A stretch of DNA of 64,000 nt from Alphaproteobacteria bacterium (lineage in GTDB: Bacteria > Pseudomonadota > Alphaproteobacteria > Rs-D84), in contig JAFXUI010000001.1 in assembly GCA_017535105.1 (NCBI GenBank), forward strand, positions 11,207 to 75,206. Direction: 5' to 3'. Below the pieces are notes generated by a model. That model worked only from the letters and a program-made list of their open reading frames with translations. It searched no databases and had not been told where the DNA came from. Below are positions 1,133-64,000 of this stretch, in pieces. Both the position numbers and the translations under genes were made by a program. The number at the start of each line of letters is the position of its first letter. Position 1 is the first letter of the stretch.

Positions 1133-2349
1133 TGTCCGCTTGTGTACCCCGTTGGAATATATTCTTGCCACCCGTCTGACATAATTGCGCCAAACTCTTC
1201 GGTCTTTGGTACGGTTGGCATTTTAGTACGCGTAATATTCAATTCTGTAAAACTTGGTGGGTTGGTTGATGGAAAATACCACGACCCCAATTTTATCGGC
1301 GAAGTTGTAGACATCATAAGTTCGCCCGAAACCGTCAACCCAAAGTTTTCAAAAAACATTATTTCGTCTGTATTCAAGTATGACGTATATACCGAACCAG
1401 CACTTATTCCCGCAAAACCACTTATTGTTTTGGAACTGCTGGATTTCAGATTTAAATTTTGTGCAACGTTTAACGAATTTGTGACAGTTGCTTTATCGGC
1501 AATGATGCGACCCGATGTCGAATAACCACGATTATTTAACTTGGCCGCGTAAATATTTCTGAACCCGATAACATCTTCGGTTACACGTAAAGAGCCAATC
1601 GAAACATTGTTACCCGTCATATTCGCACCATTGGAAAAATACACCGATTGCGCTGTCAAATCTTCGGATTCAACAAAGGTCGATGTAACATCACGCACAC
1701 GCAGTGCCGATGCAAACACACCACCAATATCGTACATGTTGTATCCGCCCATATTCAAATCACGATGCATAACATTCAAATCATCATCGCCCGATGTACC
1801 ACGATGTAAAAACTTTGTGTTATCTTCGTTTGTCACATTACGCGTAATACGATATATCAAATCACCCGCTGAAAAATCTGGGGCAACAACCGCCCACGTA
1901 CGACCATAGGCAACACCGTCCATACCAACAATTGCCGCGTCATCACCAATATGATGTGCAATATTCGCCGCACGCAAATTTGTTGAACCCATATCAAATG
2001 CTAAATATACATCTGTGACCGAAGTACCATTCACAACGTATTTATCAATAAAGCCCGCATTTGCACCACTGGCCAACATTTCCAAATCTTTTTCACTCAT
2101 TCTTATTTGTACGACATCGGGCCAAGTGTCTTGATTTAAACGGATAAAATTTAATATCTCTGGTCGCAAATCAATTATGTTATGCGCAATTGCCATATCG
2201 CGAATATTGTTGTTTGTTTCGGAAATTTGTGAATACACGAACGGCATGGCAATTGCAACAATTGCCATCGACATCAGCACTTCTAACATGCTGGCGCCAC
2301 GATTTTTACTGTCAAAAATCTTCGTTTTAAACACAGCCACCCTTACCAC
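1129..2349 (-). CDS. Large prepilin-type N-terminal domain protein (406 aa), Asn/Gly/Ser/Thr-rich and adhesin-like
   Basis: N-terminus is ...NRGASMLEVLMSMAIVAIAMPFVY, with G(-1) and Glu at +5 in a hydrophobic helix. The rest is rich in N, G, S and T. It overlaps both flanking pilin-like genes. Confidence 0.5.
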   Translation of the reverse strand: MVRVAVFKTKIFDSKNRGASMLEVLMSMAIVAIAMPFVYSQISETNNNIRDMAIAHNIIDLRPEILNFIRLNQDTWPDVVQIRMSEKDLEMLASGANAGFIDKYVVNGTSVTDVYLAFDMGSTNLRAANIAHHIGDDAAIVGMDGVAYGRTWAVVAPDFSAGDLIYRITRNVTNEDNTKFLHRGTSGDDDLNVMHRDLNMGGYNMYDIGGVFASALRVRDVTSTFVESEDLTAQSVYFSNGANMTGNNVSIGSLRVTEDVIGFRNIYAAKLNNRGYSTSGRIIADKATVTNSLNVAQNLNLKSSSSKTISGFAGISAGSVYTSYLNTDEIMFFENFGLTVSGELMMSTTSPIKLGSWYFPSTNPPSFTELNITRTKMPTVPKTEEFGAIMSDGWQEYIPTGYTSGQ

Positions 2350-3685
2350 TTAACAAACATTGTTTGATATCTATTCTTTTTTCCAACCTTTGCCAATATA
2401 CAAATTGGCATATTATGTATTGCGACAAAGATTGAGAATTATAAACACCGTCCAGTGATGTGATTATCGATTTACAATCAACCGTTGTACTGTCGTTCGC
2501 AGATGGATTCTTTAATATTCTAAATGCGGAATTATCAATTGTGCCAATACGCACGTCTGGTAAAATCGATGTTCCAGCGGGCCGTATATCCAACACCGCC
2601 ACACCACTGCCACCACGCGACAATGATTCAGACGTCTGGTCACGCAGCGTTATATTTGACGCGTGAATAATATCCGTATCAATACCACTGTTACTGCTGT
2701 ATTCCAGTGTGTCGGAATTAATATACACGTCTTGCCCACGCGCAACGTTTAAAAAAGAATCAACTTCTAACCGTTCTGTTGCAAAGTTTATTTTACTGGA
2801 CACCAGGTTGCCATGAATATTCCATTTTGCCGGTCCATAAAAACCCGTACGTCCCTCCGCCATTGAAAAATCATAAACACCCGCAGAATCAAGTGTTATG
2901 TTTCCTGTATCCCCATAACGAGAAACCGTCCGAAACGATGCGTTATCCACAATCATTGTTCCACGAACCAGTGACAATGCGCCCTCACCCGTTTTAGATT
3001 GAAAGATTGTTTTATCGGCGGCCATTGTCACAATTTTATTACGAACCTTGCGATCTGTTTCCAAACCGTTTATGTTTAACACCCCTATTTCTGAACCATC
3101 AAAATTACCACGCCGTGCAACCGCACGACCAACGTCTGAAATTGAATTGTCGTCCATATCCAAATCAACCAAGAAAGCACTGGAATCTATATCGGGTTCA
3201 TTTCTGCGCACAACATCAGAATACAACGTTTCCAACGGCACACCAACCTGGATTGAACCGTCACCCATATCTTTGGCATAAAAACCAATTCGGCGCACCA
3301 ATTCGGTACGCGACATAGTATTCAAATCACCACCCGTTAATTCAACATATGCGGATATTTCAACCGGGGTTTTATTTATTACCAAAATCATCTGTTGCCC
3401 CAGTGCTGTCTTCGGAACAAACCCCAGTGGCAAACCATAGGGTTCCAACATATCGGCAAAAGATTTTCCGGCAATCACAGTACGGTCATACGGCAACGCA
3501 GAAGCATTTTCCCGAATAAAAATTCGTGCCGCAGTTGTTGCATTATCTATTTTTTGCGTTGTCGCATACATGTGCGCATTGTTGTCGCGTTCCAGCAATT
3601 TTACGGCAAAAAACGGGATAAACATGAACAGCAGCGTCACCGCCAGCAATGCTTGCAGCAGAAAGTTTCCACGACTGTTATGCAA
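2327..3685 (-). CDS. Large exported or membrane-anchored protein (452 aa) with a degenerate pilin-like N-terminus; first gene of the three-gene minus-strand cluster
   Basis: N-terminus is MHNSRGNFLLQALLAVTLLFMFIPFF, a Gly then a hydrophobic helix with Gln instead of Glu at +5. It overlaps the downstream gene by 23 nt. I recognise no known domain. Confidence 0.35.
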   Translation of the reverse strand: MHNSRGNFLLQALLAVTLLFMFIPFFAVKLLERDNNAHMYATTQKIDNATTAARIFIRENASALPYDRTVIAGKSFADMLEPYGLPLGFVPKTALGQQMILVINKTPVEISAYVELTGGDLNTMSRTELVRRIGFYAKDMGDGSIQVGVPLETLYSDVVRRNEPDIDSSAFLVDLDMDDNSISDVGRAVARRGNFDGSEIGVLNINGLETDRKVRNKIVTMAADKTIFQSKTGEGALSLVRGTMIVDNASFRTVSRYGDTGNITLDSAGVYDFSMAEGRTGFYGPAKWNIHGNLVSSKINFATERLEVDSFLNVARGQDVYINSDTLEYSSNSGIDTDIIHASNITLRDQTSESLSRGGSGVAVLDIRPAGTSILPDVRIGTIDNSAFRILKNPSANDSTTVDCKSIITSLDGVYNSQSLSQYIICQFVYWQRLEKRIDIKQCLLSGKGGCV

Positions 3686-3841: not shown

Positions 3842-4141
3842 ATGCAAAATAAAAAAAATCAAACGTCTAATGTCGGACAAATGATTCAACGCTGTCACAA
3901 ATGGCGTCAGAAAAGAAAACAATACATTGATTTGGCACGTCAAACGACTGATGAAATCGAACGCGAACGCTTGTTACAAGCGGCGGAACATTATGGTCGT
4001 ATTGTAAATGCCGAACAAGAAAAAATCGATTCTACGCGTGGGGCAACGGGCGAAAAAATACCAGATACAATTACCGATGTCGCTGAATCTGGGGACGAAG
4101 AAGAAATCCCATTACCCGACTTTATTGAAAACTTGAAATAA
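3842..4141 (+). CDS. DUF4167 family protein (conserved small alphaproteobacterial protein)
   Basis: The segment RQKRKQYIDLARQTTDEIERERLLQAAEHYGRIV matches the DUF4167 signature (...YLQLARDA...AENYLQHAEHYFRI). The start is ambiguous: the ORF track uses TTG at 3761, and ATGs occur at 3767 and 3842. Confidence 0.5.
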   Translation: MQNKKNQTSNVGQMIQRCHKWRQKRKQYIDLARQTTDEIERERLLQAAEHYGRIVNAEQEKIDSTRGATGEKIPDTITDVAESGDEEEIPLPDFIENLK

Positions 4142-4176
4142 TTGTTATTTCGGCGCACTTTTATTGTTGAAATTTG

Positions 4177-4210
4177 ACTTCCTTTTGCTATTCTGGACGC
4201 AAAAGGAAGT
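4177..4210 (+). promoter_or_regulatory. Perfect 12 bp hairpin followed by a T-tract that contains the dnaX Shine-Dalgarno; terminator of the upstream gene and/or a structure occluding the ribosome-binding site
   Basis: acttccttttgc (4177-4188), loop tattctggac, gcaaaaggaagt (4199-4210), then tttgat and ATG at 4217. The AAGGAAG Shine-Dalgarno lies in the 3' arm. Confidence 0.4.
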
Positions 4211-4216
4211 TTTGAT

Positions 4217-5740
4217 ATGGATAGTAACTACACCGTTTTAGCCCGTAAATACCGCAGTCAAGATTTTGCATCGCTTATTGGCCAAGATGTTTTGGTAAAA
4301 ACATTGACCACGGCGATAAACACTGGACGTATTGCACACGCATATATTTTCACCGGAATTCGTGGAACTGGTAAAACCAGTACGGCACGTATCTTGGCCA
4401 AGGCATTGAACTGTTTATCGTCAAACGGACCAACCGCAACACCGTGCGGGGTTTGTGAAAACTGCCGGGCAATTGCGGCGGGGCAACACATTGACGTAAT
4501 GGAAATTGACGCGGCGTCACATACCGGCGTTGATAATATGCGCGAAATATTGGACGCGGTCCAATACCGTCCGACAAATGGTCGTTATAAAATCTATATC
4601 ATTGACGAAGTCCACATGTTATCAATCAGTGCTTTTAACGCACTGCTTAAAACACTGGAAGAACCCCCTGCACACGTTGTGTTTATTTTGGCAACAACCG
4701 ATATACGCAAGGTACCAGTTACAATTTTATCACGTTGCCAGCGTTTTGATTTGGTGCGTGTACCAGTTGAAACATTGAAAAAACATTTCGCCAACATTGC
4801 TGAAAATGAAAAGATTGAATTGACCGATGCCGCAAATGAATTATTGGCACGTGCCGCCGATGGTTCGGTCCGTGACGGTTTGTCGTTACTTGACCAGGCA
4901 ATTGCCCAAACAGGTGGACACGTTGATGAAACAGCGGTCTTAAACATGCTTAAACGTGCCGATCGTAGTGTTGTTATGTCGGTTATGGAAACAATACTTT
5001 CGGGCGACACTGCAACCGCATTGGAACGCATTGATGAAATCTATAATAACGGCGCTGATTTATCTATGTTGCTTACCGATATGATGGAATGGACACATTG
5101 GGCAACACGTATGCACCCGGCACTTCACGCGGGCGATTGTGCATCGGCACCATATACACCGGACCAGCGCGCAAAAATTCGTGATATAAATTCACACACG
5201 TCATTAAACACCCTGTCCAGATTATGGCAGGTTATGGTTGCATCGGTCTCAGAGATGCAAGCCGCGGGCAATCAAAAACAATGTTTTGATATGTTGGTTG
5301 TGCGTATGATGCATATTGCGGAAATGCCATCTGTTGCTGAAATATTGAAAAAGCAACCAAGTGCGTCAGCTGCGCAACCAAAGGCACCAGCGACACCAGC
5401 CAAACCGAAAATCACATCGGCGACCGAATTGGCAAGTGCGCTTCAGGCTGATAAAGAAATTTTGATGTATTCGTATTATACTTCGAATATTGAGGTTTCT
5501 GAATTCACTGATGGTCACATTGTATATTTTGACCGTGGTAACGATGATGACTTTGCACAGAAATTAACCGCATGGTTGAACAAAAAGACAGACAAGATTT
5601 GGTCACTGGAACGTGTAACAAAATCTGAACACGCGCAAACCGTCACCGAACAGCGACATGATGAAATTGTATCGGACCCAATGGTCGCAGACGCAATGAG
5701 TTTGTTTGAAGATGCCGAAATTATCGATTCAACAAAATGA
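4217..5740 (+). CDS. dnaX: DNA polymerase III subunit gamma/tau
   Basis: The N-terminus YRSQDFASLIGQDV...HAYIFTGIRGTGKTSTARILAKALNC carries the Walker A motif, followed by a Cys zinc module and the DEVHML sensor motif. Confidence 0.95.
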   Translation: MDSNYTVLARKYRSQDFASLIGQDVLVKTLTTAINTGRIAHAYIFTGIRGTGKTSTARILAKALNCLSSNGPTATPCGVCENCRAIAAGQHIDVMEIDAASHTGVDNMREILDAVQYRPTNGRYKIYIIDEVHMLSISAFNALLKTLEEPPAHVVFILATTDIRKVPVTILSRCQRFDLVRVPVETLKKHFANIAENEKIELTDAANELLARAADGSVRDGLSLLDQAIAQTGGHVDETAVLNMLKRADRSVVMSVMETILSGDTATALERIDEIYNNGADLSMLLTDMMEWTHWATRMHPALHAGDCASAPYTPDQRAKIRDINSHTSLNTLSRLWQVMVASVSEMQAAGNQKQCFDMLVVRMMHIAEMPSVAEILKKQPSASAAQPKAPATPAKPKITSATELASALQADKEILMYSYYTSNIEVSEFTDGHIVYFDRGNDDDFAQKLTAWLNKKTDKIWSLERVTKSEHAQTVTEQRHDEIVSDPMVADAMSLFEDAEIIDSTK

Positions 5741-29388: not shown

Positions 29389-29415
29389 AAACACCGGCAA
29401 ATGCCGGTATTTTTT
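29387..29415. terminator. Palindromic bidirectional terminator (ACCGGCA family)
   Basis: aaaaacaccggcaaatgccggtatttttt. Confidence 0.7.
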
Positions 29416-30649
29416 ATTCGTATCTTAAACTGTCAATCGGGTTTAATTTGGCGGCCTTGAATGCAGGCACAACCCCCGATGCCAATCCCACAACAATCGC
29501 AACCGCAACCGACAACACAATCGGCCACAACGAAAACGGCACATTATAATGCAATATAAGTCGCCCCACCCCCTGGGCCAGTCCTACGCCCAACGCCAAA
29601 CCAATCATTGAACCAATAAATGATATTAAAACAGATTCGGACAAAAACTGAATTATTATCTGTTTTTCTTTGGCGCCAATCGCTTTGCGGATTCCTATTT
29701 CACGTGTGCGTTCCGCAACAGATACCAACATCATATTCATAATACCAATTGCCCCAACCAAAAGCGACACCGCCGCAATCGCAATAAGCAACATTTTCAT
29801 ATATCCCGTCACCACCGACATTGTTTCCATTATTTGTTTCATATCCATAATTTGGAAATCGTCTTCATCATTGGGTTTAAGTCTGTGTCTGGTGCGCAAC
29901 AATAATCTTATTTCATCTATTACAAATTCATTGTCTGCGTCTGGATATAATTTCAGAACAATCATTTGCACCGAATTTGGAAAGCGACTGCCCTGGATAC
30001 GTTTTCGCAGTGTTGTTATCGGAATCAAAATCATATTATCCATTGACCCCATTGCAGAATCTCCCTTGGCACGCGTCACACCAATAACCGTCAGCGGTAT
30101 ATTTTGCACACGAATTATTTCACCAATCGGGTTTTCGGGCATTTCTAATTCTGTCAAAACTTCGGGACCAATTACTGCGTATGTTGATGCGTTGCGTACG
30201 GCAAACTGATTGAAAAACGTGCCCATATCTAATTCAACATTTTGCACAGTTGTATATTCGGGATACACCCCCATAAGTGATGTTGTATGATTTTTGTTTC
30301 CATATATCGCCTGGGCGCCGGTGGTTTGGACGGGGCTTGCCGCCATAACCCCCGGCAGTTGTGCAATTGTTTCTGCATCCATGGTGGTCAGTGTTTGCAG
30401 GTTTCCCGTACGCACACCGCCCATACGTGCAACACCAGCACGTATCATAATCGTACTTGTTCCCAGTGCTGAAAACTGATTGCTTATTTCGTTTTCAACT
30501 GTTTCACCAACGGCAACCATTATGACAACCGCCATAACACCAATGACGATACCCAGTACCGTTAAAAAAGAACGAATTTTATTTCCACTTATTGAAACCC
30601 AAGATTCTTTCAATATATCGCCAAATGTCATATTACCCACCCACAACAT
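29414..30649 (-). CDS. ABC transporter permease, FtsX/MacB family (permease only, no ATPase domain)
   Basis: It is 411 aa with an N-terminal transmembrane helix, a MacB-like periplasmic domain and a C-terminal FtsX three-helix bundle. It ends an operon with an MFP gene and tolC. Confidence 0.8.
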   Translation of the reverse strand: MLWVGNMTFGDILKESWVSISGNKIRSFLTVLGIVIGVMAVVIMVAVGETVENEISNQFSALGTSTIMIRAGVARMGGVRTGNLQTLTTMDAETIAQLPGVMAASPVQTTGAQAIYGNKNHTTSLMGVYPEYTTVQNVELDMGTFFNQFAVRNASTYAVIGPEVLTELEMPENPIGEIIRVQNIPLTVIGVTRAKGDSAMGSMDNMILIPITTLRKRIQGSRFPNSVQMIVLKLYPDADNEFVIDEIRLLLRTRHRLKPNDEDDFQIMDMKQIMETMSVVTGYMKMLLIAIAAVSLLVGAIGIMNMMLVSVAERTREIGIRKAIGAKEKQIIIQFLSESVLISFIGSMIGLALGVGLAQGVGRLILHYNVPFSLWPIVLSVAVAIVVGLASGVVPAFKAAKLNPIDSLRYE

Positions 30650-30699
30650 GACAATTTATAGCATAAAAAATCCCCACTTTCGTGGGGATTGAAATCTTA

Positions 30700-31926
30700 T
30701 TACCGCATTGGACCGCCGGGTCGTCCACCCATACCACCACGATTATTTACACTTGAACGATTTTGTGATTTTGCACCAATTTTACCGACAACAATTTTGT
30801 CGCCCGCCTGGATATCGTCTGAAATAATTTCTGTTTCGGTTGCGGTTACCAAACCCTTTGTATATGGGACAAAACTAACCTTGCCATCACGCAAAATCGC
30901 GACGTGTGTTGCCGGTGTTGCGCCATCTGTTTCCACCCCCAAATTATCAAACGAACGCACCAAGAACGCAGAGTTTTGCGTCTTATAAATATCAAACTTT
31001 TCATCAACAACAATTGTGACAAACGCGGTCATACCCGGCATCAAAGACAAATCGGCATTATTAACATCTATTACCACTGTGTACACAACAACATTTGATG
31101 TCGTTGTTGGCGAAAGACGAATTTGATGCACGCGCCCCTCAAAAGTTTTTGTTGGGTATGCATCAACGGTAAACGTGACCTTTTGCCCCTCTTTTATCAC
31201 ACCAATGTCGGCTTCGGATACCGATGTTTCAATTTGCATTTTGGTTAAATCTTCGGCAATTTCGAACAAGTCGGGTGTTTGGAAAGATGCCGCAACCGTT
31301 TGTCCAACATCAACCTTGCGCGAAATGACGGTACCGTCAACCGGCGATGTGATTGTCGCATAGCCCAAATTAGTCTTGGAACGTTCATATTGTGAATTCA
31401 TACGAACGACTTCTTGTTCTGCCTGTTCGTATGTAGTTTGTGATTGTTCCATTTCAGCGCGTGATATAAACCCTTCGTTATATAAAATCTTGTTGCGTTC
31501 ATATTCGCTTTTTGCGTAATTACGTTTTGATTGCGAACTGTTTAATGATGCTTCGGCTTCACGTACTTGGGCCTGTAAAACAGACGGTTCAATGGTCAGC
31601 AAAACATCACCCTTGTTCACGTGCGAATTATAATCAACATAAATGTTGTCGATTGTGCCGGACACCTGGGAACCGACGTTCACAGTATTTACCGGTTGAA
31701 TTTCACCGGTCGCACTTACAATCTGACGCAGATTGCCATAAGTAATTTCAACCGTAGAATACGATTCTTTTTGCGCCTTTTTCGCACCGCCCGAAAACAC
31801 GTTTATACCAACGGCGATAATCGCGATTAAAACAATCCACCATTTTTTGCGCCATATCCAGCGCAATGCGCGTCGCACAAAAGAAGGTCCAGATTCTTTA
31901 ACAATCGTTTTCTGTTGTTTTGCCAT
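30700..31926 (-). CDS. Periplasmic adaptor (membrane fusion protein), HlyD/MacA family
   Basis: It has an N-terminal anchor, a coiled-coil hairpin (QAQVREAEASLNSSQSKRNYAKSEYERNKILYNEG...) and biotinyl-lipoyl-like motifs, with a Gly-rich C-terminus. Confidence 0.85.
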   Translation of the reverse strand: MAKQQKTIVKESGPSFVRRALRWIWRKKWWIVLIAIIAVGINVFSGGAKKAQKESYSTVEITYGNLRQIVSATGEIQPVNTVNVGSQVSGTIDNIYVDYNSHVNKGDVLLTIEPSVLQAQVREAEASLNSSQSKRNYAKSEYERNKILYNEGFISRAEMEQSQTTYEQAEQEVVRMNSQYERSKTNLGYATITSPVDGTVISRKVDVGQTVAASFQTPDLFEIAEDLTKMQIETSVSEADIGVIKEGQKVTFTVDAYPTKTFEGRVHQIRLSPTTTSNVVVYTVVIDVNNADLSLMPGMTAFVTIVVDEKFDIYKTQNSAFLVRSFDNLGVETDGATPATHVAILRDGKVSFVPYTKGLVTATETEIISDDIQAGDKIVVGKIGAKSQNRSSVNNRGGMGGRPGGPMR

Positions 31927-33251
31927 TATTCATTCCCCTGCTTTTCAAGTCCAACACTTATATCACCAATTGCCAGCGCAACCGCCGCACGTTTGATATA
32001 CAAATCATATTTCGCCGCATTGTTTTGCTTTTGCGCAGTCAACAATTCCGATTGTGATGTTTGCCAATCAAGCATTGTTGCACGTCCAACCTTGTACATA
32101 CCACTTGTCACGCGCTCCGATTCGGTTGCGGACTTTAACAATGTTTCGGTTTGTTTCAACACCGTCTGGGCGGTTTTATAATTTTGATATGCGGTGAACA
32201 CGTCCATCATCGCTTCGTTTGTGGTATTCCGTTCTTGCTCTTTGGCGCGTTCATACGATGCCGATGCCGCACGCACACCATACATATTGGCAAAACCCGC
32301 AAATATTGGCATAGACGCCCGAATAGAAATATTACCGTCCACATTTTCGGATTTTGGGCTGTATGCATCAGCCAATTCATTACCACCCAAACCGATACCA
32401 GCAGATAATTTAATAGATGGCAGATTACTTAAAAACGAAGAATTACGTTTATGCCATGCTGCATCTTTGTTTGCCGTTGCGCGCAACAAATCTGGTCGCT
32501 TTTTTTGTGCGATTTCGATTAACTCATCTATGCTTTTCATTTCGGCATCACTGCCAAACTCGGATCCCATATCTGCGATTGTTATTTCCTGATTTGCTGG
32601 GAAAGACAGTTTGGTAAGTAATTTCCCCTTGGCTATTTCACGATTGTTTTTTGCACGCTCCAGGTCTAAATCACGACTTGCCAATGTGGTTTCCGCCTTT
32701 AACACATCAGCGCGTGCCACCGAGCCCGCCGAAAACTTCTTTTTCGCGGTATCGTGCGCGGTTTTCGCCACAGTCTGCGCAGAAATCGCCGTTTTAACAT
32801 CCGCGTCCGCGTTTAATAATTCATAGTATGCACCGACAACCGAATACACAAAGTTTTGGATTGTTTCATCATAGTCAAAACCCGCCGCACGATATGTCGC
32901 CAATGTTTCCGCCATATCCGATGTACGTTTACCAAAATCAAACAGCAAATAAGAAGCCGAAAGCGATGCGCTGTAATTCCAGTCTTTCCAATCTTTGTTT
33001 TCATAATTTTTGCCGACACCCGCAGAAAATTCGACATTTGGTAAATATGTGTGATATGCCGCATCTTTATTGAATTTCTGGGCGCGCAACGCCGCGTGTG
33101 CCGCCGCCGTTTGTGGATTGCGACAAAGCCCCAAATCAACCACATTTTGCAGGGATAAAACGCCGTCTGGAACAGCCTTTAATTCAGCACAATCATCGGC
33201 TGCAAAAGCCGCAATCGGTAAAAAAGCGCATAAAACGAGCAGGTTTTTCAT
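31926..33251 (-). CDS. tolC: Outer membrane efflux channel, TolC family
   Basis: It has a signal peptide and two repeated halves with long coiled-coil segments, and sits first in the operon with the MFP and permease genes. Confidence 0.8.
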   Translation of the reverse strand: MKNLLVLCAFLPIAAFAADDCAELKAVPDGVLSLQNVVDLGLCRNPQTAAAHAALRAQKFNKDAAYHTYLPNVEFSAGVGKNYENKDWKDWNYSASLSASYLLFDFGKRTSDMAETLATYRAAGFDYDETIQNFVYSVVGAYYELLNADADVKTAISAQTVAKTAHDTAKKKFSAGSVARADVLKAETTLASRDLDLERAKNNREIAKGKLLTKLSFPANQEITIADMGSEFGSDAEMKSIDELIEIAQKKRPDLLRATANKDAAWHKRNSSFLSNLPSIKLSAGIGLGGNELADAYSPKSENVDGNISIRASMPIFAGFANMYGVRAASASYERAKEQERNTTNEAMMDVFTAYQNYKTAQTVLKQTETLLKSATESERVTSGMYKVGRATMLDWQTSQSELLTAQKQNNAAKYDLYIKRAAVALAIGDISVGLEKQGNE

Positions 33252-58026: not shown

Positions 58027-58623
58027 ATGCATTTAGTATCAAAGGTTGTTTTTGATTACAATATTGTCAATGGTGATTTTGTTGATGGCAAAAACCTTTC
58101 TAGTCTTGCAGATTTGCAAAGTGCCATAAAGAAAAACACAACCTATGAAAAACCGTTTCTTGTGCGTATTAACAGAATTGTTAAGATTATGGATACAGAT
58201 TCACCAATACTGCATGACGGCAATCCATTTTGTGTTATGAATAAAGATAAATTCAAAACTGTCCAATTTGATGACGAACACTTTGATTTTATTGTTATGG
58301 ACAAATTAATGTACCAACCATATGTACAGAAAATGCTTATAAAAAAATATGGCAGTTCACTTAATTTAGAAAACAAAAAACTTGTTGATAATATACCTGT
58401 GTTGTTGTTTGGGGTTATTGAAGACACGCATTATGGATTAAAGGACAAAGATGGCAACCCAACAACGCAAACTATCCGTTATGTAAATTGTCGCAGTTTA
58501 ACACCTAAAGATATTGTCTTGAATAAAGATTTTTGCCAGATTTGGCCGATTAAATCAAAAAGACCTTTGCTTGCATTGGAAAAATTTTTGCACAAGACAA
58601 AAGAAAACATTCATCAAAAATAA
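58027..58623 (+). CDS. Hypothetical protein (198 aa), no recognisable family
   Basis: It is a clean AT-rich ORF between queH and fabD. Confidence 0.4.
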   Translation: MHLVSKVVFDYNIVNGDFVDGKNLSSLADLQSAIKKNTTYEKPFLVRINRIVKIMDTDSPILHDGNPFCVMNKDKFKTVQFDDEHFDFIVMDKLMYQPYVQKMLIKKYGSSLNLENKKLVDNIPVLLFGVIEDTHYGLKDKDGNPTTQTIRYVNCRSLTPKDIVLNKDFCQIWPIKSKRPLLALEKFLHKTKENIHQK

Positions 58624-60243: not shown

Positions 60244-61896
60244 ATGACAGCATACGATGTAATCATTGTTGGTGGGGGGCATGCCGGGGTTGAAGCCGCC
60301 GCGGCCTCTGCGCGTCGTGGTGCAAAAACATTGCTTTTAACTATGCGCGAAAGTGATATTGGTGCAATGAGTTGTAATCCATCAATGGGGGGGCCCGGTA
60401 AATCACAAATGATTGCGGAACTTGATGCACTGGGTGGTGTAATGCCACGCGGTGCGGATGCCGCCGGCATTCATTTTAGAACATTAAATGCATCACACGG
60501 CGCGGCGACACGCGCACTGCGCGCACAAATTGATCGCAACCTTTATCACAACGCCGTTCAAAAAATACTTAGCGAATATAAAACGCTTGATATCGTGTAT
60601 GCGCCGGTGGAAACCATTGATATTAAAAACAGAACTGTAAATAACGAATATCAATTTGGTGCGATTGTTTTTACAACTGGAACTTTTTTACACGGACTTG
60701 TCACACGTGGCGCAGAAAAAACACCATCGGGTCGTATAATGGACAACGGCGAATACCAATCGCCCGACACTCATATTTCCGATGTATTGCGCAATGCTGG
60801 ATTCCGCCTTATGCGATTAAAGACTGGAACACCGGCGCGTATTTATCGCGACAGTATAAACTTTGCGGTTTGTGAATTACAGCCGGGCGACCAACCGCAC
60901 GATTGGTTCAGCGAACCAAATGCGAAAAACAATTTCGATGCTGTTTGCTATATCACACACACGACCGAACAGACCCACAAAATAATTCGTGAAAATATTT
61001 CGGGCGCCCCAATGTATAATGGTGATATTGAGGGCATCGGTCCGCGTTATTGCCCAAGTCTGGAAGACAAGGTTATGCGTTTTCCATCACACACTTCACA
61101 CCATGTGTTTTTAGAACCCGAAGGACTGGACAGCGATTTAATTTATCCAAATGGAATTTCAACAAGTTTTGGTGCCGATATCCAAGACAAATGGATTCGC
61201 ACAATTCCGGGTTTGGAAAATGCGCGTATTGCGCGATATGGCTATGCGATTGAATATGATGCGATTGATGCGCGCGCACTGAATGATAAATTACAAAGTA
61301 AAGACATTCCATATCTGTTCTTTGCGGGACAAATTAATGGCACATCTGGGTACGAAGAAGCCGCCGCCCAGGGTATCGTTGCGGGCGCAAATGCCGCCGC
61401 ATACGCATTGGACGCGACATATTTAGAATTAGATAGAACCAACTCTATGATTGGTGTTTTGATTGACGACATAACAACACTTGGTGTGGACGAACCATAT
61501 CGTATGTTCACATCACGCGCAGAATATCGATTGAATTTGCGTGCCGATAACGCAATCGCGCGCCTTGGTACAATGGGTGTGAAATGTGGTTTAATTACGG
61601 AAAAGCAATTTGATAAAAAATATAAACTGCACGAAAAAGAAATAAAAGAAAATGATAAGTTCTATGCTGGCTATATCCAGCGCAACGAACGGGAAATCGC
61701 CGCATACAAGCGGGACGCGAACCTGAAAATTCCGACCGATTTTGATTATTCTGGAATGCCGGGACTGACCAATGAACTGATCGAAAAATTGAACATGACC
61801 AGACCCGAAAATATTGCCGACATGTCGCGCATACCGGGTATGACCCCGGCGGGAATTATGGTCGTGTTAAGAAAGATTAAAAACGGAAATAATTAG
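60244..61896 (+). CDS. mnmG: tRNA uridine 5-carboxymethylaminomethyl modification enzyme MnmG (GidA), compact 550 aa form
   Basis: It has the FAD-binding N-terminus DVIIVGGGHAGVEAA, GIEGIGPRYCPSLEDKVMRF, YPNGISTS, FFAGQINGTSGYEEAAAQG, and the C-terminal SRIPGMTPAG. Confidence 0.9.
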   Translation: MTAYDVIIVGGGHAGVEAAAASARRGAKTLLLTMRESDIGAMSCNPSMGGPGKSQMIAELDALGGVMPRGADAAGIHFRTLNASHGAATRALRAQIDRNLYHNAVQKILSEYKTLDIVYAPVETIDIKNRTVNNEYQFGAIVFTTGTFLHGLVTRGAEKTPSGRIMDNGEYQSPDTHISDVLRNAGFRLMRLKTGTPARIYRDSINFAVCELQPGDQPHDWFSEPNAKNNFDAVCYITHTTEQTHKIIRENISGAPMYNGDIEGIGPRYCPSLEDKVMRFPSHTSHHVFLEPEGLDSDLIYPNGISTSFGADIQDKWIRTIPGLENARIARYGYAIEYDAIDARALNDKLQSKDIPYLFFAGQINGTSGYEEAAAQGIVAGANAAAYALDATYLELDRTNSMIGVLIDDITTLGVDEPYRMFTSRAEYRLNLRADNAIARLGTMGVKCGLITEKQFDKKYKLHEKEIKENDKFYAGYIQRNEREIAAYKRDANLKIPTDFDYSGMPGLTNELIEKLNMTRPENIADMSRIPGMTPAGIMVVLRKIKNGNN

Positions 61897-61922
61897 AGAG
61901 AATAACTCACAAGGAAAACATA

Positions 61923-62411
61923 ATGAAAGAAAATTTGAAAGAAGGTCTTAAAAGAAACATCTATCACGAATTGGCTACACATGATGTCGTAAAAAAAGAA
62001 GAGAAAGACAGATTTACCGGTTCTTTTAGCCACATGAGTTACACATTTGGAAAATATCGCATAGAAAAACATTGGGATTATATAAGCATGTCTAAGTTCA
62101 ACCCAGATAATAATCACTTTGTTTATATGAATAACGCGGGTTGGGACGATGATTACCCAACAAACACAACATATGAAATATATATTGCGGCCATGAATAA
62201 AGCCGAGGGTAAAAAATATAAAGACCCATATAAAATACCAGCGAAAGAAACCATAAAAGATTCACAAAAACGTTTTAAACAAGAAATGTTGGAAAACGCT
62301 GCGGACTTTTTGCCATATGACATGCCAAAGCAACTGGCATTACGTACAATCGCTGAAATGAAACAGGTTTTAACAAACAACCTGAAAAAACATTATACAA
62401 AACAGAAATAA
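61923..62411 (+). CDS. Hypothetical protein, tandem paralog 1 (162 aa)
   Basis: Its C-terminal half shares the pattern NKAxGK..PY......T......F...M..NA...FPYD.......IAEMK with the next ORF. Confidence 0.45.
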   Translation: MKENLKEGLKRNIYHELATHDVVKKEEKDRFTGSFSHMSYTFGKYRIEKHWDYISMSKFNPDNNHFVYMNNAGWDDDYPTNTTYEIYIAAMNKAEGKKYKDPYKIPAKETIKDSQKRFKQEMLENAADFLPYDMPKQLALRTIAEMKQVLTNNLKKHYTKQK

Positions 62412-62457
62412 AAAAACGGGGGACCGAAGAGAGAATAAAACCCAAAAGGAACCCACT

Positions 62458-62901
62458 ATGCAACTAACAATCGCCGATATAAAAGACATTTGGTATAACA
62501 TCTCAACTCAGAAAATACAAATAGACTCTATTTTTGGAGTCAAAGAATATTCTTTTGGTCCTTTTGCTATTCTTCCAAGTGAAACACATATATCTGTTTG
62601 TAAAAATGGCAAGGTAATAGACGAATGGAAATCAGCATATAATTCCAAAGATGACCCCATTTATCAAATGTCTGTTGCAGTTAAAAACAAAGCGAACGGC
62701 AAGCCTTTTATAAACCCATATGAAAATATGTCTGTGGATACAACCGTCCAAAAGTGTGCAAACACTTTTGAAAAAGTAATGATCAAAAACGCCGGTGCTG
62801 TATTTCCATATGATTATCGCAAGGATAAAGAGAAATACACACAAGTTATCGCTGAAATGAAAACCATTTTCGCCGACAAAATCCGCCAAAAAATCAAATA
62901 A
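62458..62901 (+). CDS. Hypothetical protein, tandem paralog 2 (147 aa)
   Basis: It is a paralog of 61923..62411 with a good Shine-Dalgarno (AAAAGGAACCC). Confidence 0.45.
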   Translation: MQLTIADIKDIWYNISTQKIQIDSIFGVKEYSFGPFAILPSETHISVCKNGKVIDEWKSAYNSKDDPIYQMSVAVKNKANGKPFINPYENMSVDTTVQKCANTFEKVMIKNAGAVFPYDYRKDKEKYTQVIAEMKTIFADKIRQKIK

Positions 62902-62948
62902 TAAAAACCTTGAAATTCGGGGTTTTGTCGTCTATGATAGCAACCGTT

Positions 62949-63024
62949 GCCGGTGTAGCTCAGCTGGTAGAGCATCTCATTCGTAATGAGGGGGTCGTAG
63001 GTTCAAGTCCTATCACCGGCACCA
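62949..63024 (+). tRNA. tRNA-Thr (anticodon CGU)
   Basis: The cloverleaf was read by hand: acceptor GCCGGTG/CACCGGC, anticodon loop TTCGTAA, and an encoded CCA. Confidence 0.85.
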
Positions 63025-63089: not shown

Positions 63090-63112
63090 GCGGTGGCTGG
63101 GGCGCATGTGGC
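63090..63112 (+). terminator. GC-rich hairpin plus T-tract downstream of tRNA-Thr
   Basis: gggcgc atgtg gcgccc gttttt. Confidence 0.5.
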
Positions 63113-63143
63113 GCCCGTTTTTAATAAATAAAAAGGATAAAAC

Positions 63144-64000
63144 ATGGCATATCCAAAAACAGAAGCACGTGCAAACTTTCCAGAACTGGAACATCAAATA
63201 ATTCAATTCTGGCGCGATGACAATACATTTCATAAATCGTTAAATCGTACGAAATTGGGACATCCATTTTCGTTCTATGACGGTCCACCGTTTGGAAACG
63301 GTCTGCCACACTGGGGACATTTGGGCGTGTCGTCTATTAAAGATATGGTTTCGCGTTATAAAACAATGCGCGGTTATCACGTGATGCGTGAACTGGGGTG
63401 GGATTGCCATGGTCTGCCCGCAGAAAACAGCGTTGAAAAAAAGCAGGGAAAGTCCGCCAAAGATATTGTTGCGGAATCTGGTATTGCCGCATTTTGTGAC
63501 ATGTGCCGCACAGACGTTATGACATATACAAACGAATGGTTGCAATACATTGAACGCATTGGTCGTTGGGTTGACGGTGGTGATAACTATGGTTATCGCA
63601 CCATGGATAAAAACTATATGGAATCTGTAATCTGGGCATTGAAACAGTTGTATGACAAGGGTTTGCTCTATAAAGATTTCAAGGTCAATCCATACGACTG
63701 GAAATTAGGAACGGTTTTATCAAACAGTGAAGCGTCCAGCGAATATCAAGACGTTGTTGACGATACTGTGACTGTTTGGTTTGAACTGGAAAATGGTGAC
63801 CGCGTTATAGCGTGGACCACAACACCGTGGACATTGCCGGCAAACTCTGCATTGGCGGTGAACCCCAATATGAAATATGTTCGTATGAAGCATAATGACG
63901 GCCACGTGTATATCTTGGCGGAATCACGTTTGTCCGCATACGAAAAGATTTTTGCTGAATCTGAAAACTTGGGTACGGTAATGGGGGCCGATTTAATCGG
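63144..64000 (+). CDS. ileS: Isoleucyl-tRNA synthetase (type 2, eukaryote-like), N-terminal part; continues past the window end
   Basis: FSFYDGPPFGNGLPHWGHL is the HIGH-type motif. TTTPWTLPAN is the conserved WTTTPWT element. There is no stop before position 64000. Confidence 0.88.
   Translation, partial: MAYPKTEARANFPELEHQIIQFWRDDNTFHKSLNRTKLGHPFSFYDGPPFGNGLPHWGHLGVSSIKDMVSRYKTMRGYHVMRELGWDCHGLPAENSVEKKQGKSAKDIVAESGIAAFCDMCRTDVMTYTNEWLQYIERIGRWVDGGDNYGYRTMDKNYMESVIWALKQLYDKGLLYKDFKVNPYDWKLGTVLSNSEASSEYQDVVDDTVTVWFELENGDRVIAWTTTPWTLPANSALAVNPNMKYVRMKHNDGHVYILAESRLSAYEKIFAESENLGTVMGADLI

Follow-up and report, generated by a model that had tools for sequence, protein, structure and literature searches.

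A 64,000-nucleotide (nt) stretch of contig JAFXUI010000001.1 from Alphaproteobacteria bacterium (GTDB lineage Rs-D84), called the window below, carries two small tandem genes, pA and pB, between mnmG and the gene for tRNA-Thr(CGU). Both are probably expressed members of a small, fast-evolving and lineage-restricted accessory family, which we name family X, that undergoes birth and death at one genomic site and may encode a modular intracellular binding protein. An initial annotation of this DNA had noted two open reading frames (ORFs) of 162 and 147 amino acids (aa) between mnmG and tRNA-Thr, and our analysis confirms their coordinates and their location on the + strand. The same annotation judged the ORFs to be duplicated and diversified members of a lineage-specific accessory family and proposed a search for expansion in related genomes. 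Both parts of that judgement are borne out by the distribution of the family described below.

The predicted pA and pB proteins align with 25% identity over ~150 aa (BLASTP, E = 4e-12). Their Smith-Waterman score is 121; shuffled sequences average 31.9 ± 5.5 (z = 16), and 0 of 2000 shuffles of pB reach the observed value. This comparison with shuffled controls, which the initial annotation had named as a check, indicates that pA and pB are true paralogs. Similarity had been described as C-terminal, with the remainder strongly diverged. The alignment extends beyond the C-terminus over nearly the full length of both proteins.

The closest relative found, L001, is a 128-kb rumen-type metagenome contig whose MnmG is 97% identical to that of the window. 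Relative to L001, the ratio of nonsynonymous to synonymous substitution rates (dN/dS) is 0.19 for pA (compared with copy 1 of the L001 array) and 0.20 for pB, values that derive from 24-46 nonsynonymous vs 24-38 synonymous differences, whereas five flanking housekeeping genes give 0.03-0.12. The ileS comparison, which was out of frame, is disregarded. Protein identity to L001 is 79% for pA and 88% for pB (P0001 / L001 10001-10444), compared with 97-99% for MnmG, FabG and FabD. These values indicate that pA and pB are under purifying selection, yet evolve 2-7 times more freely than the neighbouring genes. Because selection is purifying, both are taken to be real genes.

If the ORFs were pseudogene remnants in decay or had arisen by chance in an AT-rich spacer, they might also be AT-rich, lack a known domain and occur patchily, as pA and pB do, and truncated or frameshifted array members do exist at other loci. 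This explanation is contradicted by the dN/dS of 0.19-0.20 for the two genes, by intact ORFs with Shine-Dalgarno sites in many species, by conserved motifs that are retained down to 25% identity, and by the high-confidence AlphaFold2 (AF2) models obtained for both proteins. Furthermore, the genome is smaller than 1 Mb and has a coding density above 90% (PMC12306168). The signal of purifying selection, together with conservation, refutes the view that the ORFs are not functional genes, to which we give hardly any credence.

The features of the locus are as follows (coordinates are those of the window).

60244-61896, + strand: mnmG, short form of 550 aa, identified as MnmG/GidA by matches in PDB and Pfam; conserved upstream neighbour that anchors the site
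61911-61915, + strand: Shine-Dalgarno of pA, AAGGA, read from the sequence, inside the 26-nt gap between mnmG and pA
61923-62411, + strand: pA, ORF of 162 aa, the first gene after mnmG; match to the family hidden Markov model at E = 1e-82
62355-62374, + strand: likely crossover zone in pA, the 20-nt GAAATGAAACAGGTTTTAAC, identical in L001 copies 1 and 2 (DNA alignment, sliding identity, blastn)
62446-62450, + strand: Shine-Dalgarno of pB, AAGGA, read from the sequence, inside the 46-nt spacer between pA and pB
62458-62901, + strand: pB, ORF of 147 aa, diverged paralog of pA
62902-62948, + strand: 47-nt segment from the last family gene to tRNA-Thr, with a promoter-like TTGAAA-17-TATGAT at 62910-62938 (consensus scan)
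62949-63024, + strand: tRNA-Thr(CGU) (ARAGORN; Rfam, 70.2 bits), the usual downstream edge of the variable site
63100-63125, + strand: intrinsic-terminator-like hairpin, GGGCGC-ATGTG-GCGCCC followed by a T run (terminator scan)

The AAGGA element lies 7 nt before the ATG in both genes, so each has its own Shine-Dalgarno, as had been noted earlier. The ileS gene starts at 63146, 3' of tRNA-Thr. No further family copies beyond pA and pB occur in the 64-kb window, and an Rfam scan of 57-64 kb returned the tRNA only, with no hidden noncoding RNA. GC content is 33.3% in pA and 34.0% in pB, compared with 45.2% in mnmG and 42.9% in the whole window.

Family X is tiny and confined to one uncultured alphaproteobacterial lineage (Rs-D84 / Candidatus Enterousia-like). 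Against 5.8 billion proteins, a word-indexed search recovered 29 relatives for pA and 2 for pB, each of which is either unnamed or annotated as 'hypothetical protein [Alphaproteobacteria bacterium]'. When 1.84 billion cluster representatives were scanned exhaustively with a HMMER profile, 42 proteins were found at E<=1e-3. Among GTDB species genomes, the family was found only in metagenome-assembled genomes (MAGs) from rumen and gut, one of which is named Candidatus Enterousia. Enterousia belongs to the order Rs-D84, all members of which have reduced genomes, mostly <1 Mb, and a presumed partner-dependent lifestyle (PMC12306168). No viral, phage or plasmid relatives were detected in IMG/VR (2.9 M viral contigs), INPHARED (50,697 phage records) or PLSDB (72,556 plasmids).

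Distribution of family X at the mnmG-tRNA-Thr site

Family genes are found on the same strand as, and directly 3' of, the 550-aa mnmG in the window and at 14 other loci (L001-L012, L015, L016 and L023). The gap from mnmG to the family gene, measured in ten loci, is -1 to 66 nt, and the linkage to mnmG holds even for members that are only ~26% identical to pA. Where the contig reaches far enough, tRNA-Thr(CGU) usually follows the array, and it bounds the site in L001, L005-L007, L012, L015 and L023. A single copy is present in L005-L008, L012 and L015, two copies in the window and L023 (at least two in L004), and four copies in L001 and L010. Spacers between copies are 12-46 nt long and contain no intervening ORFs. 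Overall, copy number at this position ranges from 0 to 4. Family X occupies one variable site, which runs from the mnmG stop codon to tRNA-Thr(CGU) and holds its copies in tandem.

Some arrays include altered members. A conserved 109-aa truncated form that lacks the last two helices is present in L009-L011 (L009 3670-3999; L010 1377-1706). In L009, the last copy (4020-4492) is split into ORFs of 106 aa and 57 aa, by either a frameshift or an assembly error.

Sampling by MnmG only, which is unbiased with respect to X, provided 9 distinct loci; a metagenome scan with the C-terminus of MnmG yielded 4 usable loci, most of its matches being distant MnmGs. The family is present in one of the nine MnmG-sampled loci (L023) and absent near mnmG in L017, L019, L021, L022, L024, L101, L102 and L103. 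The site is empty in L019, L022, L024 and L102, where tRNA-Thr begins 27-30 nt past the mnmG stop codon. In L017 it is occupied by a DUF421 gene, and in L101 it is rearranged. Because X-less and otherwise-filled sites occur among these relatives, the family is accessory and the mnmG-tRNA-Thr junction is variable. The 62902-62948 segment of the window recurs, with changes, in L001, L007, L012 and L023, while empty sites have a different AT-rich gap of 27-30 nt.

The low GC content of the pair had been listed in the initial annotation among the signs of accessory genes. All ten array-bearing loci examined show it, with 27-39% GC in the family and 38-46% in the adjacent mnmG. Because the difference is equally marked in all ten, we regard low GC as a trait of the family and not as evidence of recent import.

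A phage-type integrase gene lies at 5878-6930 in L103 (which lacks the family), ~1.2 kb 3' of mnmG and after two minus-strand genes, one of which is outer membrane beta-barrel-like; tRNA-Thr was not found in the stretch fetched. This arrangement suggests that integrative elements also use the region downstream of mnmG. In the window, queH and fabD are separated by a 198-aa ORFan with no Pfam match (58027-58623, + strand). L001 and L004 also carry it, and L005 and L008 have a diverged version that has moved upstream of queH; no copy was detected in the remaining loci fetched (L006-L007, L009-L012 and L014-L024). Over 61 aa, this ORFan shows weak similarity (E = 4e-4) to u179, a 179-aa ORF at the mnmG-tRNA-Thr site of L015, and it may represent a second accessory family that uses intergenic junctions of the same operon.

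Recombination and predicted transcription of the array

Comparison with the four-copy array of L001 reveals how the two arrays are related. Up to the 62355-62374 segment, pA matches L001 copy 1 with 65-97% identity per 60-nt interval. Past this segment, the match switches to L001 copy 2 for the final ~35 nt of pA, and to the spacer downstream of that copy for the entire 46-nt spacer. The spacer between pA and pB is homologous to that between copies 2 and 3 of L001, and pB is orthologous to copy 3. The window has no copy 4; the junction falls at the stop codon, and from there 97% identity continues into the tRNA. These alignments indicate that pA is a copy 1/copy 2 recombinant relative to the L001 array, and that adjacent copies underwent unequal homologous crossing-over within their conserved 3' parts, which left this overall pattern. 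Either a deletion in the window lineage or a reciprocal duplication in the L001 lineage would give the same pattern. In the model that we favour, the conserved 3' halves of the copies would undergo unequal homologous recombination, and arrays would grow, shrink and be reshuffled as a result.

A different rearrangement is present in L015, where a 183-bp direct repeat of the mnmG 3' end (1653-1835 and 2388-2570, 91% identity) brackets the single X gene. The downstream repeat is a 69-aa ORF that matches the C-terminal Pfam domain of MnmG and begins with 12 codons similar to the N-terminus of X. This repeat looks like a scar of illegitimate or unequal recombination, or a chimeric remnant, at the same spot.

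We considered whether the pair might be cargo of a mobile element, such as a genomic islet, phage remnant or gene cassette inserted either at tRNA-Thr or at the 3' end of mnmG. The genes have a GC content 10 points below that of their flanks and adjoin a tRNA gene, L015 carries the 183-bp repeat of the mnmG 3' end, L103 has a phage-type integrase, and the site holds other cargo in L017 (DUF421) and L015 (u179). However, the site lacks integrase and transposase genes as well as att-like repeats both in the window (57-64 kb) and in L001. The initial annotation had viewed the neighbouring tRNA gene as typical for such accessory genes. The array does adjoin tRNA-Thr, but the position is not that of a classical island: tRNA-targeting integrases use the tRNA 3' end, whereas this array is appended to mnmG and lies 5' of an intact tRNA-Thr. 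The only integrase is in L103, which has no X, and the repeat in L015 derives from mnmG and not from the tRNA. Viral, phage and plasmid relatives are lacking, as are PHROG matches, and fold matches in BFVD are non-significant. Finally, low GC is a family trait in every lineage, and homologous unequal crossing-over explains the changes in copy number. We therefore consider mobile cargo very unlikely, although the mnmG-tRNA-Thr site is clearly recombinogenic.

These properties resemble those of ORFan tandem multigene families that evolve by birth and death. Shared features are diverged tandem paralogs whose copy number varies from 0 to 4 between close relatives, the presence of chimeric, truncated and frameshifted copies, and evolution that is faster than that of neighbouring genes yet remains under purifying selection. 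Family X differs in that its site is the 27-30-nt junction of two housekeeping genes, mnmG and tRNA-Thr, and not an island with mobility genes. In addition, the genome is <1 Mb and the genes appear to ride the mnmG operon.

In a consensus scan, terminator-like hairpins were absent from the interval that runs from mnmG to the end of pB; the first strong candidate follows tRNA-Thr at 63100-63125. Because no terminator-like site is present, the gaps are tiny and each gene has a Shine-Dalgarno site, read-through expression from the queH-(orf198)-fabD-fabG-mnmG unit is suggested. Transcription of X would thus probably proceed by read-through from the queH-fabD-fabG-mnmG housekeeping operon. The TTGAAA-17-TATGAT element at 62910-62938 is a predicted promoter only.

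Predicted architecture of family X proteins

AF2 models were built from a 26-sequence family alignment, following the structure-prediction check proposed in the initial annotation, and are confident for both proteins: the mean predicted local distance difference test score (pLDDT) is 89.8 for pA, with a predicted TM-score (pTM) of 0.79, and 83.8 for pB. The two share a predicted topology that starts with an N-terminal helix, continues with a five-stranded antiparallel beta-meander and ends with three helices. In the pA model, these elements correspond to a helix at 7-19, five strands at 23-73, and helices at 82-94, 107-129 and 136-161.

Conservation is distributed unevenly over this architecture. 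When expressed as the mean top-residue frequency in a 65-sequence alignment (pA numbering), it is 0.64 for the N-terminal helix, 0.39 for the beta-sheet (23-73), which also holds the indels, 0.68 for helix 82-94, 0.67 for loop 95-106 and 0.72 for loop 130-135. Residues conserved in at least 85% of these sequences are Y14, L17, V22, Y40, F42, G43, Y45, Y84, A89, N92, K93, G96, K97, Y99, P102, Y103, F118 and P131, which compose a Y-x-F-G hairpin, an N-K-x-x-G-K-x-Y-x-D-P-Y loop and a P-Y-D loop. Across the family, the near-invariant loop motifs take the forms N-K-x-x-G-K-x-[YF]-x-[DN]-P-[YF] and P-[YF]-D. The C-terminal pattern reported in the initial annotation is real and family-wide (N92, K93, G96, K97, P102, Y103, F118, P131 and Y132), except for its FPYD element: pA has FLPYD and pB has VFPYD, which align as [LF]-P-Y-D, so that only PYD is common to both in register.

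Both proteins are basic (isoelectric point 9.1-9.2), hydrophilic (grand average of hydropathy -1.1 and -0.4) and ~17-19 kDa in size, and the family is rich in Lys, Asn, Tyr and Ile. Neither has a signal peptide or transmembrane segment; the maximum 15-residue Kyte-Doolittle mean is 0.35 for pA and 1.02 for pB, and the N-termini are hydrophilic. The initial annotation had offered host interaction as an alternative role. This alternative finds no support, since there is no signal peptide, transmembrane segment, Pfam domain or eukaryote-like motif; export through a type I, IV or VI system or another non-classical route would still be compatible with these sequences. We propose that the product of X would be a soluble, basic cytoplasmic protein with a conserved N-terminal helix, a hypervariable five-stranded sheet and a conserved three-helix module.

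The initial annotation recognised no known family, and searches of Pfam, NCBIfam, PHROGs, PADLOC and PDB agree. In Pfam, pA has no match at E<=10, and the best for pB is TetR_C_22 at 14.4 bits (cut-off 26.4). PHROGs gave no credible match (best for pB, phrog_28467, E = 0.027), nor did NCBIfam or PADLOC for either protein, and the best E value in a PDB sequence-profile search was 1.2. Foldseek comparison of both models with PDB, and of pA with BFVD, returned nothing at E<=0.001 and no TM-score >0.35. Weak partial matches were obtained to DUF3836, monellin/cystatin-like, RelE and YmzC structures, and these appear to reflect merely a helix packed on an antiparallel sheet. Cystatin/monellin-like, RelE-like and DUF3836 folds share with the N-terminal half of X one helix on a five-stranded antiparallel sheet. 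Their matches, however, are non-significant (E>=0.1, TM-score 0.13-0.35), span 50-90 residues and leave the C-terminal three-helix module uncovered.

A type II toxin-antitoxin system of the RelE/ParE kind was also considered and rejected. RelE structures match only at E = 0.35-0.84 with TM-scores of 0.13-0.19 over 55-66 columns, and the neighbours pA and pB are paralogs of one family, not a toxin and its antitoxin. Family X is previously undescribed, and its fold is not matched among the solved or viral structures searched.

Possible roles of family X

The combination of a conserved scaffold and a variable sheet would be compatible with a modular intracellular binding protein of the conflict, immunity or recognition type, and not with a core partner of MnmG. 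In this model the helical module, with its invariant Lys/Asn/Asp/Tyr loops, would contact a constant partner or ligand, and the variable beta-sheet would give specificity for a diversifying target. Taken by itself, this mechanism is tentative, and we regard it as possible rather than probable.

The position of X next to mnmG raises the possibility that it serves the short MnmG as a dedicated accessory subunit or regulator, for instance by replacing a segment deleted from the helical domain or by helping to bind tRNA. The 550-aa MnmG of the window lacks ~64 residues in its C-terminal helical domain (equivalent to E. coli residues ~479-542) and keeps the helices that contact MnmE. The short form extends across the lineage, as shown by >120 clusters of proteins that are 546-550 aa long and 77-97% identical. 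Consistent with a role beside MnmG are the absence of this segment from the MnmG of the lineage, the tight same-strand linkage to mnmG (gaps of -1 to 66 nt) in members down to 26% identity, and the basic character and invariant lysines of X. However, eight of the nine MnmG-sampled relatives have the same short MnmG of 546-550 aa yet no X at the site, and in four relatives mnmG directly abuts tRNA-Thr.

The structure of MnmG argues in the same direction. In E. coli MnmG, the elements that contact MnmE are 427-431, 547-567 and 608-622 (PMC12397908). These are retained in the short form, and the deleted segment is not among them. Moreover, the sequences of X and of E. coli MnmG show no similarity, and a copy number of 0-4 that includes pseudogenised copies is unfit for a stoichiometric subunit. 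The X-less relatives with the same short MnmG essentially refute an obligatory partnership, and any dedicated role with MnmG is most improbable. X genes immediately follow mnmG and share its strand; rsmG (gidB) has this position in E. coli and is the usual successor of mnmG. X differs from RsmG and from MnmE, the established MnmG partner, in having no GTPase, tetrahydrofolate-binding or methyltransferase fold and in being absent from most relatives with the same MnmG.

Another candidate role is that of orphan immunity proteins against polymorphic or contact-dependent toxins, encoded in a diversified tandem array. Immunity arrays of polymorphic toxin systems typically consist of diverged paralogs of small cytoplasmic proteins that are patchily distributed, mosaic and variable on a constant scaffold. 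Family X shows diverged tandem paralogs, patchy presence, recombination mosaicism and a constant scaffold with a variable surface, and its bearers live in a dense gut community with a presumed partner-dependent lifestyle (PMC12306168). As small cytoplasmic alpha+beta proteins encoded in patchy tandem arrays in gut bacteria, X proteins are also like the orphan immunity proteins of polymorphic toxin, contact-dependent inhibition (CDI) and type VI secretion systems (SUKH/SMI1_KNR4 and Imm families). They differ from these in the lack of a family or fold match and of a nearby toxin, in their basic character and in their near-invariant loop motifs.

No toxin gene or toxin C-terminal fragment is present in or beside any array examined; instead, the arrays are flanked by mnmG and tRNA-Thr/ileS. 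No Pfam immunity family (SUKH/SMI1_KNR4, Imm*) matches at E<=10 and none matches in PADLOC. Likewise, no immunity structure is found among significant Foldseek matches in PDB, where chains of CdiI complexes reach only E = 0.8 and a TM-score of 0.14. Many nuclease immunity proteins are acidic, and near-invariant polar motifs are unusual in immunity proteins, whereas X is basic and keeps such motifs across paralogs that are 25% identical. We consider this role unlikely.

A more elaborate proposal is that X is a modular recognition or immunity protein, with a fold unmatched by Foldseek among solved or viral structures, in which a sheet face that confers specificity and is shuffled by recombination adjoins the constant helical module. 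It would be kept, and amplified to 4 copies, against a diversifying antagonist or partner, and the 27-30-nt mnmG-tRNA-Thr junction would act as a dedicated cassette site within a housekeeping operon. The antagonist or partner could be a toxin, a phage protein or a host-cell factor, and the bearer would be an obligately partner-dependent, genome-reduced gut alphaproteobacterium. Both the proposal and this identification of the parties carry a low probability in our assessment.

Several observations weigh against our preferred reading of X as an expressed accessory family of intracellular binding proteins. No partner gene was found for X, and the absence of toxin genes or fragments near the arrays weakens its immunity version. 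No homolog of known function and no significant fold match were found (best Foldseek TM-score 0.25-0.35). One distant member, L014 (the most distant), is not beside mnmG, and read-through is predicted from the consensus scan together with the spacing of the genes. The variable sheet gives no support for positive selection, as regional dN/dS in the beta region is 0.14-0.25. Because dS is 1.7 in the beta region of pA but ~0.3 in its flanks, this segment appears to have been exchanged between old alleles or paralogs, which suggests that divergence of the beta region reflects old allelic or paralogous diversity shuffled by recombination. Finally, the near-invariant residues are largely Gly, Pro and aromatics, and their role could be purely structural.

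Elsewhere in the window, adjacent minus-strand ORFs of 406 aa (1129-2349) and 452 aa (2327-3685) have no Pfam match at E<=0.001 and are further lineage-specific unknowns in this reduced genome. Genes for a MacB-type permease (MacB_PCD and FtsX domains), an HlyD-family membrane-fusion protein and a TolC-like outer membrane efflux protein lie in a row at 29414-33251 (- strand), and are predicted to form a tripartite efflux or export system.

In other respects X is one of very many uncharacterised lineage-specific families known from MAGs, and no new mechanism is indicated. The locus nevertheless provides a clean natural example of unequal crossing-over that resizes a tandem array between very close relatives. 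Some Rs-D84 / Enterousia genomes of <1 Mb that have shed most biosynthesis still keep X, in up to 4 copies. The family is a candidate determinant of the probably partner-dependent rumen and gut lifestyle of the Rs-D84 / Enterousia group.

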